Shown here: one piece after another, positions 15,023 through 25,351 of the stretch | Layout of the letters: the number at the start of each line of letters is the position of its first letter | Numbering within the stretch: the first letter of the stretch is position 1 | NCBI GenBank assembly: GCA_049509635.1 | Contig: JBEKZS010000011.1 | Span: 141 to 64,140, forward strand | DNA length: 64,000 bases | Source of the DNA: Roseiarcus sp. | GTDB taxonomy: Bacteria; Pseudomonadota; Alphaproteobacteria; Rhizobiales; Beijerinckiaceae | Reading direction: 5' to 3' | Notes under the pieces: generated by a model | The model's database searches: none | What the model was told of the DNA's origin: nothing | Seen by the model: only the letters and a program-made list of their open reading frames with translations | Made by a program: the position numbers and the translations under genes

Positions 15023-15736
15023 GTGAACGCCTGCGGCGCCGTAAGGATTCGACAGCGCGACGCCGGCCGGCCCGCGAGGGCGGCTGTCCGCGCCGCCCTG
15101 TTGGGCCTGGCGATCGCATGCGGGCCGGCCGGCGCCTGGGCCCTCGCCCAATCCCCGCCCGATTACGCGGCCGCGGCGCGGGGGATCGTCGATTCCCAGG
15201 GTCTGCAGACCGCGTTTCCCAACCCGGCGCGCGCCGATCCGGCCTACACCTCCTGGATCGATCTCGACCTCACGCGCTGGCTGCTGTGGGGCGCCGTCGC
15301 CGCCGGCGCCGTCGTCCTCGCGCTGTACCTGGGCGACATCCTGCCGGGCGGGCGGCTCGCGCGGCGGGGCGGCTGGAGCGCCGAGGAAGCCGGACCGGGG
15401 CCGGCGGGCGCCGGCGCCGGGTTGGCCGCGCAGACCAGCGCCGACGAACTGGCGCGCCTCGGGCGGTTCGTCGAGGCGATGCACGTCCTCTTGCTGCAGG
15501 CGGTCGCCGACATGCACGGGCGCCTCGACCAGCGGATCGCCGATTCGCTGACGAGCCGCGAAATCCTCCGCCACGCCTCGGTCCCGCCGGTCGCCAGATC
15601 CGCTCTGGGCGAGATCATCGGCGCCGTCGAGCGCGCCTATTTCGGCGACCATCCGGCCGGCGAGAGCGAGTATCGGGCGTGCCGGAGCCATTTCTCGGTC
15701 TTTGCCGGCGCCCTGCGCGAGGGCCGGCGCGCATGA
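15023..15736 (+). CDS. DUF4129-domain membrane protein
   Basis: Signal-like N-terminus, one TM segment, C-terminal ADELARLGRFVEAMHVLL...DSLTSREIL...VERAYFG; start uncertain. Confidence 0.7.
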   Translation: MNACGAVRIRQRDAGRPARAAVRAALLGLAIACGPAGAWALAQSPPDYAAAARGIVDSQGLQTAFPNPARADPAYTSWIDLDLTRWLLWGAVAAGAVVLALYLGDILPGGRLARRGGWSAEEAGPGPAGAGAGLAAQTSADELARLGRFVEAMHVLLLQAVADMHGRLDQRIADSLTSREILRHASVPPVARSALGEIIGAVERAYFGDHPAGESEYRACRSHFSVFAGALREGRRA

Positions 15737-16956
15737 GCGAACAGAGCCTGTTCTCGCCGCGCGTTCTGCTGCTCTGGGTCTCGGCGCTGGCGGCGATCCT
15801 GGCTCTGTCGCTCTATCTGTTCGCCTTCGGCGACGGCGCCCCCGAGACCCGGGCGGTCGGCCCGAGCGCCTATTCGCGTTCGGCGATCGGCTATGCCGGG
15901 CTTGCCGAGCTGCTGCGGCGCGCCGGCGCGCCGGTGACCAGCAAACGGATCGGCTCCGTGTCGGACGAGGACGCCGACAGCCTGCTGATCCTCGCCGAGC
16001 CCGAGGCAGCCGCCCGCTACGAGGCGACCGGCTTCCAGTTCGGTCCCGCGCGCAACGTGCTGGTGATCCTGCCCAAATGGCTCGGCGAGCGCGACGCGCG
16101 TCATCCCGGCTGGATCGGCCATGTCGAGGCGGCGCCCGAGTCGAACGCCGACTGGGCGCTCTCGATCCTCGGCCTCGGCGGACGGGTCGAGCGCGGCGGG
16201 CGCGACGGGGCGCCGTTCGGCGCGCAACTGACGACCAATCGCCTGGGCGTCGAACCGCAACTGCCCGGCGATCTCCAATTGATCGTCGGCGGTTCGCTGG
16301 TCCCGATCCTGGCCACCGGCGCCGGCGTCATGATCGGCGAGAGCGTCTCGCGCGGGCGCCGCATCTGGGTCGTCGCCGACCCCGACATCCTGTCGAATCA
16401 CGGCCTGTTCGAGGGCGCGAACGCCCAATTCGCGGGCGCCTTGATCGACGCGCTGCGCGGCCCCGGCGGCCGGGTGGTGTTCGACGAGACGATCCACGGC
16501 TTTGCGGCGCCGGCGGCCAATCCGCTGCGCGCGCTGTTCGGATTCCCGTTCGTCGCGGCGACCCTCTACGGGCTGGCGGCGCTCGCCGTGGTCCTGTGGG
16601 CGGCGACGGGCCGGTTCGGCGCCCCCGAGCCCGCGCCCGTCCGCCTGCAGGCGGGCAAGCTCGGCCTGATCCGCAACGTCGCCGACCTCATCGCCCTGGC
16701 GGGCGGGCGGCAGGACGTAGCGATGAACTACCTGCGGCTGTCGGTCGACGACGCCGCGCGGCGGCTGCGCGCGCCCCGGGGCCTCGGCCTCGAGCGCCAG
16801 ATGGAATGGCTCGACCGGGTCGGCGCGGCGCGCGGGCTGAAAGCCGGCGTCGCAGAGATTGCGCGCCGCCTGGTCGGCCAGCGGCAGGACGCGGCGCTCG
16901 CGCGCGCGGCGCTCGACCTTCACCAGTGGAAGCAGGAGATTTTGCGTGGACCTTGA
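15733..16956 (+). CDS. DUF4350-domain protein
   Basis: N-terminal [40 protein letters not shown], second TM then RFGAP; ATG overlaps the DUF4129 stop. Confidence 0.75.
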
Positions 16957-17902
16957 GCAGATCCGGGCGATGACCGAGGCGGTTCGCGGCGAGGTGCGCA
17001 AGGTCGTCGTCGGCCAGGACGCGATCGTCGACCTCATGCTGACCACATTGCTGTGCGGCGGCCACGTCCTGCTCGAGGGCGCCCCGGGCACCGCCAAGAC
17101 CCTGCTGACCCAGGCGTTCGCGGCGAGCCTGTCGCTGCGTTTCGGGCGCATCCAGTTCACGCCCGACATGATGCCGGGCGACATTCTGGGCACCAACCTC
17201 TTCAACTTCCAGACCAACAGCTTCGTGCTGACCAAGGGCCCGATCTTCACCCAGGCGCTGCTCGCCGACGAGATCAACCGCACGCCGCCCAAGACGCAGG
17301 CGGCGCTGCTGCAGGCGATGAACGAGCGCATCGTCACCATCGACGGCAAGGACTATCCGCTCGGCGACGAGTTCATGGTCGCCGCGACGCAGAATCCGAT
17401 CGAGCAGCAGGGCACCTATCCCTTGCCCGAGGCCCAGCTCGACCGCTTCATGTTCAAGGCGGTGATCGACTATCCCTCGCGCGACGAGGAGCGGGCGATC
17501 GTCGAGCGGCACGGCCATCGCTCGGCGATGCCGCGCCTGGCCGACTTCGACCTGCAGCCGGTCGTGACGCCCGACGGCCTGGCGCTGGTTCGGAGCGCGG
17601 TCGAGCGCATCCGCCTGTCCGACGTGCTGATCGACTATGTCGTCGACGTCGTGCGCGCGACCCGCCAGCACCGTTCGATCGAAACCGGGGCCTCGCCGCG
17701 CGCCGCCAACATGCTGGCGGCCGCCTCGCGCGCCTATGCCGCGATCCAGGGGCGCGACTTCGTGATCCCCGACGACGTCAAGACGCTCGCCGCGCCGCTG
17801 CTGCGCCATCGGCTCTCGCTGTCTCCGGGCGCCGAGATCGAGGGCGTCAGCGCCGACCGGATCATCGGCGACATCCTCGAGCAGACCGCGGCGCCGCGCT
17901 GA
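16946..17902 (+). CDS. moxR: MoxR-proper AAA+ ATPase
   Basis: [69 protein letters not shown]; AGGAG RBS before GTG. Confidence 0.93.
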
Positions 17903-23493: not shown

Positions 23494-24225
23494 CTAGTCG
23501 AACACCGCTGCGATCGCCTCGATGTCGACGCCTTCGCGGGCGACGCGCAACTGGTGGTAGAGCACGCCCGCGGTCACCGCACGGAACGCGCCCGCCGCCG
23601 ATTCGACGAGGTAGAGCGCGAGGGCGGCCAGCAGCGGGCCGCCGGCCAGCGGGGCCAGCGCGCCGACGATGACGAAGACGAGCATGAAGGCGAGGACGAC
23701 CAGCGCGAAGACGCCGAATATGCGCCAGCGGGCGCCCTTGGTCAGGGCCGCGCTGCGGCTCATGCTGTCGAACGCCCCGCGCCGCTCGACGACGCAGACC
23801 GGGAGCGCGATCGCATACATGCACCAGACGATGACGCCTGGAATCACCAGCAGGATCGTGGCCAGCCCTACGCTGAAGCCCAACACGAGCGACAGGCCGA
23901 TGACCGGGCCGAGGCGCGCGAATCCGGCGCTCAGCGATTCCGCGACCGTAAAACCGCGTCCGCGCAATTGCTGGACGACGCCGTAGATGATTGCGGCGTC
24001 GGCGAACGACGCGCAGGAGATCTGAAGAACAGTCCCGATGATTCCAGCGCCGACGCCCTTCGCAACGACCAGGCCGAACAGGAACCGGGGCGCGAAGGCG
24101 ATCAGCGAAAGCCCCATGAACGGCGCCCAGCGGGCGGCGAACACGCCCCAAGCCTGGTTCAGGACGTCGCCGACGCGGATCCCGGGCGCCTCGCTGATGC
24201 GGGCGCCGGCGAAGGAATCAACCAT
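23494..24225 (-). CDS. Multi-pass membrane protein, paralog C
   Basis: IRVGDVLNQAWGVFAARW, VVERRGAFDSMSRSAALTKGARWR, LYHQLRVAREGVDIEAIAAVFD; GAGGGG RBS. Confidence 0.85.
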   Translation of the reverse strand: MVDSFAGARISEAPGIRVGDVLNQAWGVFAARWAPFMGLSLIAFAPRFLFGLVVAKGVGAGIIGTVLQISCASFADAAIIYGVVQQLRGRGFTVAESLSAGFARLGPVIGLSLVLGFSVGLATILLVIPGVIVWCMYAIALPVCVVERRGAFDSMSRSAALTKGARWRIFGVFALVVLAFMLVFVIVGALAPLAGGPLLAALALYLVESAAGAFRAVTAGVLYHQLRVAREGVDIEAIAAVFD

Positions 24226-24544
24226 CAAATCCCCCTCTTTGCAGTCGAACCCTCGACGAGCGCCAGACTGACGCGTCCGCGCGCGCCTGTCGAGCGCGGG
24301 CGCCGCGCGGATCGGGCTCCGACGCGCAGCGCTTACGGGACGGCGGCGGGCGCATCGGCCGGCCGACGCCCCGAGGCCCGGTCGAAGCCGCCCGGGACGC
24401 CGATGAACGACCGCGCGCGATCGCGGCCCGGCGCGAAGGCCGCAGGTGATGGATGGGTCATGGGCTCGACCTCTGTCGTCGATCGAGGGCGATCGGGGCG
24501 CGGGGTCCGGCCAGGCCGCCCGAGGCCGGCCGGCGCCCGTCCGC

Positions 24545-25351
24545 CTAGTCGAACACGCGGGCGATCTGCTCGATGGCGACGCCTTCGCGCGCGGCGCGCA
24601 ACTGGAAATAGAGGGCGGCGGTGACCACGGTTCCCAGCGCGCCGGATACCGCCTGGACGGGCAAGTCGAGCAGCAGAGCAACGCTCGGGCCCGCCATGAA
24701 ATCGGCGAGACGCAGCAACAACTGGCAGACGATTCCCACGCCGAAAACGAGCGCCAGGATCAGTCCCAGCACCCGCCAGCGGTTGCCCTTCGTCAGATAG
24801 GCGCTGCGCGACAGGCTCTTGACCGGCCCGAGCCGCTCGATGAGGCAGGCGGGAATGGCGACCGCGAACATGCAGAAGACGATGACGCCGGGAATCAGGA
24901 ACAGCAGGGAGGCGAACAAGCCGGCGAGCCCGCCGAGGATCGTCAGGCCCACGACGGCGGGCGATCGCCGCAGCGCCGCGCCGAGCGCCTGGCCCACGGA
25001 CAGACGGCTGCCGGCGATATCGTGGGAGACGAGCGCATAGCCGGCGACCCAGGCGAGCAGCGCCCATGCGAACGCCGCCAGGCCGACGACGACGATCGCG
25101 CCGACAAGGACGGCGGAATTGACATCCGTGAGATCGTCGCGCAGGACCGTCGGGAGGCGCTGCGACACGCCCGGCAAATTCATGGCGCCCGCGCCCGCGA
25201 ACGGGACATATCCGACGAGCGCGAGGCCGCAATAGGTCGGCCAGCGCGACGCGAACAGCCGCATCGACCGGCTGAAGACATCCCCGAGGCTGATCGCGGT
25301 CGGCGCGCGCTCAGGCGCCTGGGAGAAGGACGTCGCGGCGATATCGGTCAT
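24545..25351 (-). CDS. Multi-pass membrane protein, paralog D
   Basis: ISLGDVFSRSMRLFASRW, LIERLGPVKSLSRSAYLTKGNRWR, LYFQLRAAREGVAIEQIARVFD. Confidence 0.85.
   Translation of the reverse strand: MTDIAATSFSQAPERAPTAISLGDVFSRSMRLFASRWPTYCGLALVGYVPFAGAGAMNLPGVSQRLPTVLRDDLTDVNSAVLVGAIVVVGLAAFAWALLAWVAGYALVSHDIAGSRLSVGQALGAALRRSPAVVGLTILGGLAGLFASLLFLIPGVIVFCMFAVAIPACLIERLGPVKSLSRSAYLTKGNRWRVLGLILALVFGVGIVCQLLLRLADFMAGPSVALLLDLPVQAVSGALGTVVTAALYFQLRAAREGVAIEQIARVFD

Follow-up and report, generated by a model that had tools for sequence, protein, structure and literature searches.

A MoxR-SpoIIM-RDD gene module of Roseiarcus made up of seven protein families, the seventh an amplified polytopic membrane protein

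Introduction

In the CoxD-CoxE, NorQ-NorD, RavA-ViaA and CbbQ-CbbO systems, an AAA+ hexamer and a VWA adaptor mature or remodel a partner complex. The partners of these characterised MoxR/VWA pairs are soluble or respiratory enzymes, and their VWA proteins contain a metal ion-dependent adhesion site (MIDAS). Here we analyse positions 15,023 to 25,351 of a 64,000-nucleotide stretch of DNA (the window) from Roseiarcus sp., an alphaproteobacterium of the Beijerinckiaceae (assembly GCA_049509635.1, contig JBEKZS010000011.1, positions 141 to 64,140 of the forward strand). In contrast to the characterised pairs, the MoxR gene of this locus lies among genes for five families of membrane proteins, and the MIDAS serines of its VWA-like DUF58 partner are missing. 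We show that the locus is one functional module of seven protein families, and that an array of paralogous polytopic genes facing a six-gene operon is the seventh conserved subunit of the module, carried on the opposite strand and expanded to four copies, of which one is broken.

The closest described gene set surrounds moxR2 in Mycobacterium tuberculosis (Rv3689-Rv3695), where Rv3691 is annotated as a DUF4350 protein, Rv3692 as MoxR, Rv3693 as DUF58, Rv3694c as SpoIIM, Rv3695 as RDD and Rv3689 as a membrane protein (PMC8191103). The literature that we found on this mycobacterial cluster comprises only expression tables and a divisome pull-down list. In M. chelonae, the whole cluster is down-regulated together with, and to the same extent as, the adjoining genes of one continuous block (log2 -6 to -9, PMC8191103), a result that says nothing specific about the function of the module. 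In the pull-down, the divisome protein Rv0954 brings down Rv3694c and Rv3695, which are entries in a list rather than a validated interaction (PMC8093794).

Related gene sets have been described in other contexts. Makarova et al. (2015, PMC5898192) predicted an archaeal secretion or membrane-remodelling system from neighbourhoods of DUF4350, MoxR and vWA genes, detected a similarity of DUF4350 to GldG with HHpred, and reported that bacterial SpoIIM homologues adjoin vWA proteins and COG0714 ATPases. MoxR-DUF58 operons of the Bat/MRP type have general envelope or stress associations (PMC11834572, PMC5700661). The SpoIIM protein of Bacillus subtilis scaffolds peptidoglycan hydrolases, as summarised in PMC5898192. 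Within the RDD family, the one protein characterised so far, from Halobacillus andaensis, is a Na+(Li+,K+)/H+ antiporter (PMC5996927). No paper assigning the module a function or mechanism was found in the literature searched, whose coverage did not extend to subscription journals. A first-pass annotation of the window, made from the sequence alone, had called the system a candidate undescribed membrane machine; in view of the 2015 prediction and of the mycobacterial annotation, this wording goes too far.

Results and discussion

The paralog family accompanies the six-gene operon in four phyla

On the plus strand of the window, at positions 15023-21139, genes for DUF4129, DUF4350, MoxR (AAA_3), DUF58, SpoIIM and RDD proteins follow one another contiguously, each above its Pfam cut-off. 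Comparable loci were retrieved from one genome per species (GTDB) by peptide patterns derived from the alignment of the facing paralogs alone, and the 61 loci obtained were then probed by tblastn with the six operon proteins. All six operon genes lie within 10 kb at 42 of the 61 loci. Seven further loci hold a partial operon set, three of them with contig ends or one missing match and four from other phyla. The paralog family converges on the RDD gene, as it does in the window, at 29 loci with 1 to 6 copies (Roseiarcus, Methylocapsa, Stellaceae, Pelagibius, Kiloniellaceae, Dongiaceae and Caulobacterales), and it diverges from the DUF4129 gene as a single copy at 16 loci (Sphingomonas, Sphingobium, Mesorhizobium and Rhizobiaceae). 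When we clustered the open reading frames (ORFs) of the 61 loci in search of a cargo, a hydrolase or a regulator, nothing beyond the seven families recurred in more than about 8 loci. The conserved set consists of exactly seven families.

The association was also evident in samples of genomes. Among 300 evenly drawn alphaproteobacteria, a SpoIIM orthologue was found in 17 genomes, the paralog family in 31 and both in 15, against about 1.8 expected by chance (Fisher p 4.8e-15), and they lie side by side in 11 of the 17 operon genomes. Among 151 Actinomycetota, the paralog family occurs in 82 and SpoIIM in 44; in 22 of the latter genomes, SpoIIM and a family member are separated by 4-10 kb, nearly always by 4.2-4.9 kb and with the member on the opposite strand. 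By these two samples, about 29% of Actinomycetota and about 6% of Alphaproteobacteria have the module. Caulobacter vibrioides has matches to SpoIIM and DUF58. A separate search for SpoIIM homologues returned close relatives (at least 60% identity) and gives no view of distant phyla.

The family adjoins the operon in Alphaproteobacteria, Actinomycetota, Chlamydiota and Acidobacteriota. At the one actinobacterial locus that was verified, the order is a family member (430 aa), DUF4129, DUF4350, MoxR, DUF58, SpoIIM on the opposite strand, and RDD. In Parachlamydia, all seven families are encoded on one strand with overlapping junctions, and in a Parachlamydia metagenome-assembled genome (MAG) RDD and SpoIIM form a single 565-aa protein (locus L040, 8527-10224; RDD E 1e-21, SpoIIM E 3.5e-29). 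At the same locus, a Ser/Thr protein kinase gene (10149-11858) overlaps the end of the operon. The first-pass annotation had made its proposal depend on the paralogs accompanying the operon elsewhere, and the family does travel with it, across these phyla and in several layouts.

Relation to the mycobacterial and archaeal gene sets

The first-pass annotation had placed the same genes around moxR2 of M. tuberculosis, in agreement with the published table. The mycobacterial cluster and its orthologues in M. chelonae and M. abscessus contain the same families as the window, and the actinobacterial locus that we examined has the mycobacterial layout with the window family in first position. The window module is the alphaproteobacterial form of the moxR2 cluster Rv3689-Rv3695. 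Going by this layout, Rv3689 would be a member of the paralog family. The two forms differ in several respects. In the window, four copies of the YciC-like gene stand on the strand opposite the operon and run towards RDD; SpoIIM is inverted in the mycobacterial cluster and co-directional in the window; and the product of the first actinobacterial gene has a long Pro/Gly-rich N-terminus, unlike the window paralogs.

The archaeal arCOG01314 neighbourhood, whose function is likewise only predicted, shares with the window a DUF4350 protein with a putative GldG-like domain on the outside and a transmembrane (TM) segment towards the C-terminus, a COG0714 MoxR and a vWA protein. Its other partners are Ig-like and S-layer proteins, whereas those of the window are DUF4129, SpoIIM-like, RDD and YciC-like proteins. 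The vWA protein is secreted in the archaeal system, while that of the window is predicted to be cytoplasmic and tethered to the membrane.

Gene organization of the locus

The window has a G+C content of about 70%, and ORFs were therefore picked by third-position G+C and afterwards by Pfam (Table 1). The first-pass annotation had described six co-oriented genes with overlapping stop and start codons and had named their domains in the order DUF4129-DUF4350-MoxR-DUF58-SpoIIM-RDD; Pfam and a reading of the junctions bear out both statements.

Table 1. Genes of the seven-family module in the window
Feature	Positions	Strand	Length	Remarks
DUF4129 membrane protein	15023..15736	+	237 aa	PF13559 E 7.5e-9
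DUF4350 protein	15733..16956	+	407 aa	PF14258 E 4.7e-11
MoxR-type AAA+ ATPase	16946..17902	+	318 aa	AAA_3 E 7e-60; AAA_lid_2 E 2e-23
DUF58 protein	17902..19212	+	436 aa	PF01882 E 1e-28
SpoIIM-like polytopic protein	19209..20264	+	351 aa	PF01944 E 4.5e-24
RDD-family membrane protein	20261..21139	+	292 aa	PF06271 E 3.8e-17
Paralog A, YciC/DUF7847-like polytopic	21136..22056	-	306 aa	converges on RDD
Paralog B, decayed copy	22793..23470	-		in-frame TAG 23225-23227; internally deleted compared with A, C and D
Paralog C, intact	23494..24243	-	249 aa	GPDPase_memb 6e-7, below cut-off
Paralog D, intact	24545..25351	-	268 aa	AlphaFold2 model, pLDDT 90.2

All five junctions of the core operon overlap, by 1-11 nt, and the packing is tight and translationally coupled. 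The sequence reads ATGA at the DUF4129/DUF4350 junction, TGATG at MoxR/DUF58, GTGA at DUF58/SpoIIM and ATGA at SpoIIM/RDD, while the overlap of DUF4350 with MoxR amounts to 11 nt if MoxR starts at the GTG at 16946; an alternative start is the ATG at 16970. The junctions of the Methylocapsa orthologues are called in the same way, including the GTG start of the MoxR orthologue. At the convergent end of the operon, the RDD stop codon (21137-21139) and the minus-strand stop codon of paralog A (21136-21138) share 2 nt.

Several scans of the locus gave no further assignment. No Rfam family reached its gathering score in 14000-30600, and promoter and terminator scans gave counts not clearly above those of shuffled sequences (2 vs 0.6 and 7 vs 5.4). 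For the locus proteins, NCBIfam returned only generic AAA matches and a sub-threshold YciC match. The PADLOC models of anti-phage defence matched no system, with cross-hits at the MoxR P-loop only (E about 1e-3). A sequence search of the PDB found nothing for DUF58, SpoIIM, RDD, the DUF4350 profile or the paralog profile, and MoxR was the sole match.

The spaces around the paralogs have some features of their own. Between paralogs A and B lie 736 bp (22057-22792) with no convincing ORF or Rfam match, including a locally A+T-richer patch at about 22540-22610. The minus-strand upstream regions of A (22087-22140) and D (25400-25490) have short blocks in common (CTTAACC ... TTGTTGA), and a G+C-rich hairpin followed by a T-rich run is also found upstream of these two genes; B and C have neither feature. 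The shared blocks, which match no Rfam family, may be a common promoter or leader.

MoxR ATPase and its DUF58 partner

The MoxR protein is a competent ATPase, as judged from its motifs and its homology to a known structure. Its translation contains an intact Walker A (GAPGTAKT) and Walker B (LLADEINR), and the sequence search against PDB entry 2R44 gave an E value of 9.5e-74. The AAA_3 plus AAA_lid_2 architecture, the retained sensor and arginine-finger motifs and the QLDRF motif place it in the MoxR-proper (MRP) group.

From hydropathy and counts of Lys and Arg (K+R), the DUF58 protein has an N-terminal TM hairpin followed by a cytoplasmic VWA-like body. At the MIDAS position it reads D-T-G-H-L-M, in contrast to the canonical DxSxS. 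The window protein and 51 orthologues carry D-[TSAC]-G-x-x-M throughout, with A in place of G in one sequence. A second DUF58 protein of the same genome, on contig C116, serves as an internal control and keeps the canonical DRSPSM. The module adaptor has therefore lost both MIDAS serines, in a comparison that covers the DxSxS motif of the MIDAS.

The DUF58 gene on C116 (locus L079, 2418-3287, minus strand), inside which the contig ends, is followed by a gene for an 805-aa BatA-like membrane protein (3-2417), and this locus is a separate Bat-type MoxR module within the same genome. Bat/MRP-type operons share with the window an AAA_3 MoxR-proper protein and a DUF58 protein. The Bat type, however, adds VWA-membrane and tetratricopeptide repeat (TPR) proteins and keeps DxSxSM, whereas the window locus has neither partner, with no BatA/BatB-type VWA or TPR protein found there by Pfam.

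Topology and conservation of the other operon proteins

Topologies were taken from a simple hydropathy scan with K+R counts (the positive-inside rule) and from two single-chain AlphaFold2 (AF2) models, which together make a crude method. The DUF4129 protein has hydrophobic segments at 24-42 and 83-101 with an outside loop of only about 40 aa; for the C-terminal DUF4129 domain, which has 136 aa and 16 K+R, a cytoplasmic location is most likely. Orthologues are present in 41 loci.

The DUF4350 protein is predicted to consist of an N-terminal TM segment, a periplasmic alpha/beta domain of about 240 aa, a second TM segment (273-294) and a conserved cytoplasmic helical bundle (307-405). Its AF2 model has a pLDDT of 81. 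In Foldseek the best match of this model is the N-terminal GIFT domain of IFT52 (5fmr), which is weak (E 0.04, probability 0.82, TM-score 0.21-0.36), followed by GH42 trimerisation domains and class-I amidotransferases, also weak. These matches agree with the published GldG similarity of DUF4350 (PMC5898192) and are not significant on their own. In these models, DUF4350 appears to be the only module protein with a large periplasmic part. The first-pass annotation had assigned large extracytoplasmic domains to both anchored proteins at the start of the operon; this fits the DUF4350 protein and does not fit the DUF4129 protein with its short loop.

The SpoIIM-like protein begins with a cytoplasmic N-terminal domain of about 130 aa, which corresponds to DUF8413 of newer Pfam (PF28475 on the orthologues). 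Conserved residues include H255-G-x-x-E259 and E314, and H, E and N residues embedded in the membrane are conserved. Like SpoIIM of B. subtilis, a polytopic membrane scaffold, it carries the Pfam SpoIIM domain above the cut-off. It differs from the B. subtilis protein in the extra DUF8413 domain and in its RDD partner, and its host is not a spore-former. No SpoIID, SpoIIP or other hydrolase family is conserved in the 61 neighbourhoods, which is a statement about these neighbourhoods, as no genome-wide search for SpoIID or SpoIIP was made. Among the membrane subunits, the RDD protein is the most strongly conserved, 59 of its residues being near-invariant, and it has a conserved C-terminal cytoplasmic domain of about 95 aa.

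The paralog array

Paralogs A to D show pairwise identities of 30-38% and have motifs in common, among them the C-terminal REGV..E....(V/A)FD; the 4.69-Mb genome contains no further member of the family. Four polytopic paralogs facing the operon had been noted in the first-pass annotation; the number is right, although only three of them are intact. In paralog B the reading frame continues on both sides of the TAG codon (Table 1) and about 50-80 residues of the membrane core are gone, so that it is most simply read as a pseudogene beside three intact copies. A sister Roseiarcus MAG is uninformative about the TAG, as its contig stops at the equivalent of window position 23242, just before the codon. 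The same MAG has lost about 490 bp (L008 9252-9403 vs window 24835-25328), corresponding to the N-terminal half of paralog D, and this loss indicates that the array is decaying or varying among close relatives. The largest array seen consists of six tandem copies converging on the operon in an alphaproteobacterial MAG (L022, 9539-14587).

YciC (UPF0259), DUF975, GPDPase_memb and DUF7847, the best matches of the paralogs, are uncharacterised polytopic proteins of similar size, and all scores fall below the curated cut-offs. The best is GPDPase_memb for paralog C (28.9 bits vs 29.6); the others are UPF0259 (19.5 vs 31.4), NCBIfam YciC (19.6 vs 227) and DUF975 (17.6 vs 34.8). The precomputed Pfam marks of the Methylocapsa orthologues, DUF7847 and UPF0259, are also faint or weak. 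This corrects the first-pass annotation, which had called these proteins YciC-like, as none of the matches passes its threshold. The window family has its own signature loop and C-terminal tail and has no Pfam family of its own. It is very large and extends far beyond the operon, with 54,037 cluster representatives at 50% identity at E<=1e-3 and 5,627 at E<=1e-30.

The confident AF2 model of paralog D (pLDDT 90.2, pTM 0.85) is all-helical, and we count six TM helices in it. Both the C-terminal ...VFD tail and a conserved loop (E172...R191-W192) are predicted on the basic, presumably cytoplasmic side. Across the family, ...FD stands exactly at the end of 60 of 97 ORFs, and 56 of those 60 end in VFD. 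No convincing fold neighbour of the paralog model was found in the PDB by Foldseek; the matches obtained, CTL1/PNS1 (probability 0.84-0.95) and CysZ (0.87), are weak (E about 0.4, TM-score 0.37-0.44).

Genomic context and distribution among relatives

Upstream of the module, at 5782-14833, the window carries a cox-type Mo-enzyme cluster with CoxL (MoCoBD), CoxM (FAD_binding_5), a CoxD-like AAA protein, the VWA protein CoxE, XdhC, a MoeA-like protein and MocA, so that two AAA+/VWA pairs, CoxD-CoxE and MoxR-DUF58, stand in a row. Downstream follow a SnoaL-like gene, rplK-rplA, a gene for a minus-strand polytopic protein, rplJ-rplL and rpoBC. The SnoaL-like gene (25642-26070) precedes rplK-rplA in place of nusG, and the polytopic protein (27496-28989, minus strand, 497 aa, no Pfam match) is encoded antisense between rplA and rplJ. 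The sister MAG has the same arrangement of these genes.

Neither the SpoIIM orthologue nor the paralogs occur in any of the 24 sampled congeners or in 16 genomes from this order. In two close congeners, XdhC, the MoeA-like gene and MocA are retained, and homology to the window ends at about 14835. The nearest relative found is a Roseiarcus sp. MAG with 84-98% protein identity and the same layout on both sides, and the left junction is common to Methylocapsa sp. S129 and another Roseiarcus MAG. The module is thus an accessory, patchily distributed block in this lineage, and its link to the cox genes is local.

Proposed mode of action and alternatives

We lean, with little more than even confidence, towards a model inferred as a whole in which MoxR, docked by the membrane-anchored DUF58 protein, remodels an inner-membrane complex from the cytoplasmic face. 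The membrane proteins would assemble into one inner-membrane complex, in which RDD and SpoIIM would touch directly, because they are a single fused protein in Parachlamydia. Each subunit has conserved elements that are predicted on the cytoplasmic side, namely the DUF4129 domain, the DUF4350 bundle, the N-domain of SpoIIM, the C-domain of RDD and the loop and tail of the paralogs. DUF58, tethered by its N-terminal hairpin and devoid of the MIDAS serines, may be an adaptor keeping the MoxR hexamer at the membrane, and ATP hydrolysis would then assemble, remodel or gate the complex in a chaperone-like manner, by analogy with the characterised MoxR-VWA pairs. The GIFT-like domain of DUF4350 would form the periplasmic end; since it is the only sizeable periplasmic element, the effect is probably exerted on, or sensed from, the cell envelope. 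An envelope role is also hinted at by the Rv0954 pull-down (PMC8093794) and by the role of B. subtilis SpoIIM as outlined in PMC5898192. The tandem paralogs may be alternative versions of one subunit. The interpretation given in the first-pass annotation is partly supported, and its ATP-driven envelope complex is plausible.

Here, we need to consider several points that weigh against this model. The association of the family with the operon is not obligate: the family is missing from 2 of the 17 alphaproteobacterial operon genomes, strong matches to it occur in 8 alphaproteobacterial genomes that have no operon, and stand-alone members adjoin unrelated genes for acyl-CoA metabolism, LysR regulators or ABC transporters. 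With the MIDAS serines gone, the usual client binding of VWA proteins may not apply to DUF58, and a substrate or client could not be identified from the neighbourhoods of the 61 loci. The topologies come from the simple hydropathy scan and single-chain AF2 models, and the protein-protein contacts in the module are putative.

Other explanations of the locus were weighed against the remodelling model. A secretion or export apparatus, in which MoxR/DUF58 energises or assembles a SpoIIM-RDD-YciC-like channel and the GldG-like domain of DUF4350 is a periplasmic accessory, would agree with the secretion system predicted for archaeal arCOG01314 neighbourhoods (PMC5898192), with the resemblance of DUF4350 to GldG/IFT52 GIFT domains and with the predominance of membrane proteins among the components. 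The 61 loci, however, show no conserved cargo, secretin, outer-membrane or signal-bearing neighbour, and the archaeal S-layer and Ig-like partners are absent at the window locus. MoxR ATPases are not known as translocation motors, which also counts against export, and we regard this explanation as unlikely. A regulated transporter of ions or small solutes, with flux through RDD and/or the YciC-like proteins and with MoxR/DUF58 controlling assembly or activity, is suggested by the antiporter activity of the one characterised RDD protein (PMC5996927), by CTL1/PNS1 and CysZ as the best fold matches of the paralog model and by the membrane-embedded H, E and N of SpoIIM. It appears quite unlikely, as those fold matches are far from significance, seven conserved subunits and an AAA+ chaperone would be unusual for a simple carrier, and the RDD protein of the window has a large extra cytoplasmic domain. 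The module might instead be a scaffold for remodelling of peptidoglycan or the division site, resembling the sporulation DMP system, with the SpoIIM-like protein recruiting wall hydrolases and MoxR controlling their delivery. The role of SpoIIM in B. subtilis (PMC5898192), the presence of Rv3694c and Rv3695 in the Rv0954 divisome pull-down (PMC8093794) and the assistance of M. tuberculosis MoxR1 in the export of the RipA hydrolase (PMC4810496) point in this direction. Against it, no hydrolase gene is conserved near the module in the 61 loci, the pull-down is a list entry rather than a validated interaction, and the module also occurs in Parachlamydia, which we count as contrary without drawing any inference about wall chemistry; such a scaffold seems very unlikely to us.

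Two further explanations concern the boundaries of the module. The direct upstream position of CoxL, CoxM, CoxD, CoxE, XdhC, the MoeA-like gene and MocA, and the left junction common to Methylocapsa sp. S129 and two Roseiarcus MAGs, could mean that the module serves the CO-dehydrogenase-type cox cluster, for example by membrane anchoring or maturation of its Mo enzyme. Elsewhere in the 61 loci, however, the module has no conserved neighbour of a cox-type family, and the link is confined to this lineage; XdhC, the MoeA-like gene and MocA are found in congeners that lack the module, and the cox cluster has a MoxR/VWA pair of its own, CoxD and CoxE. A functional tie to the cox cluster was rejected as lineage-specific on the ORF clustering and the congener comparison, and we regard it as highly improbable. 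The array could also be an unrelated neighbour placed there by chance or local rearrangement, with the six-gene operon as the sole unit, as the opposite strand of the paralogs and the occurrence of the family without the operon might suggest. Array and operon nevertheless stand side by side in four phyla and in at least four different arrangements, among them the same operon with its overlapping junctions, and the co-occurrence is far beyond chance (Fisher p 4.8e-15). Chance adjacency, alone among the alternatives, is effectively excluded.

Within the remodelling model, a more specific and speculative version, to which we give little credence at present, would make the YciC-like protein an exchangeable client or specificity subunit. 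In this version, DUF58/MoxR would grip the loop ER.G...SL.RS..LTKGNRWR and the tail ...VFD-COOH, and ATP would be used to swap paralogs in a SpoIIM-RDD core.

Implications

The module itself has already been noticed bioinformatically, and what is new here is its seventh subunit and the amplification of that subunit. The module is among the more widespread bacterial gene clusters with no assigned function, and the present copy is one of many. The seventh subunit, the RDD-SpoIIM fusion, the DUF58 protein without MIDAS serines, the loop and tail, and the copy number of 1-6 offer handles for experiments. If paralogs are indeed exchanged, the 1-6 diverged tandem copies would make the properties of the membrane complex switchable, and the module would exchange polytopic membrane subunits by means of an AAA+ ATPase, for which there is no described precedent in bacteria. 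If the remodelling model is correct, MoxR-VWA chaperones would extend from soluble metalloenzymes to a dedicated inner-membrane complex.

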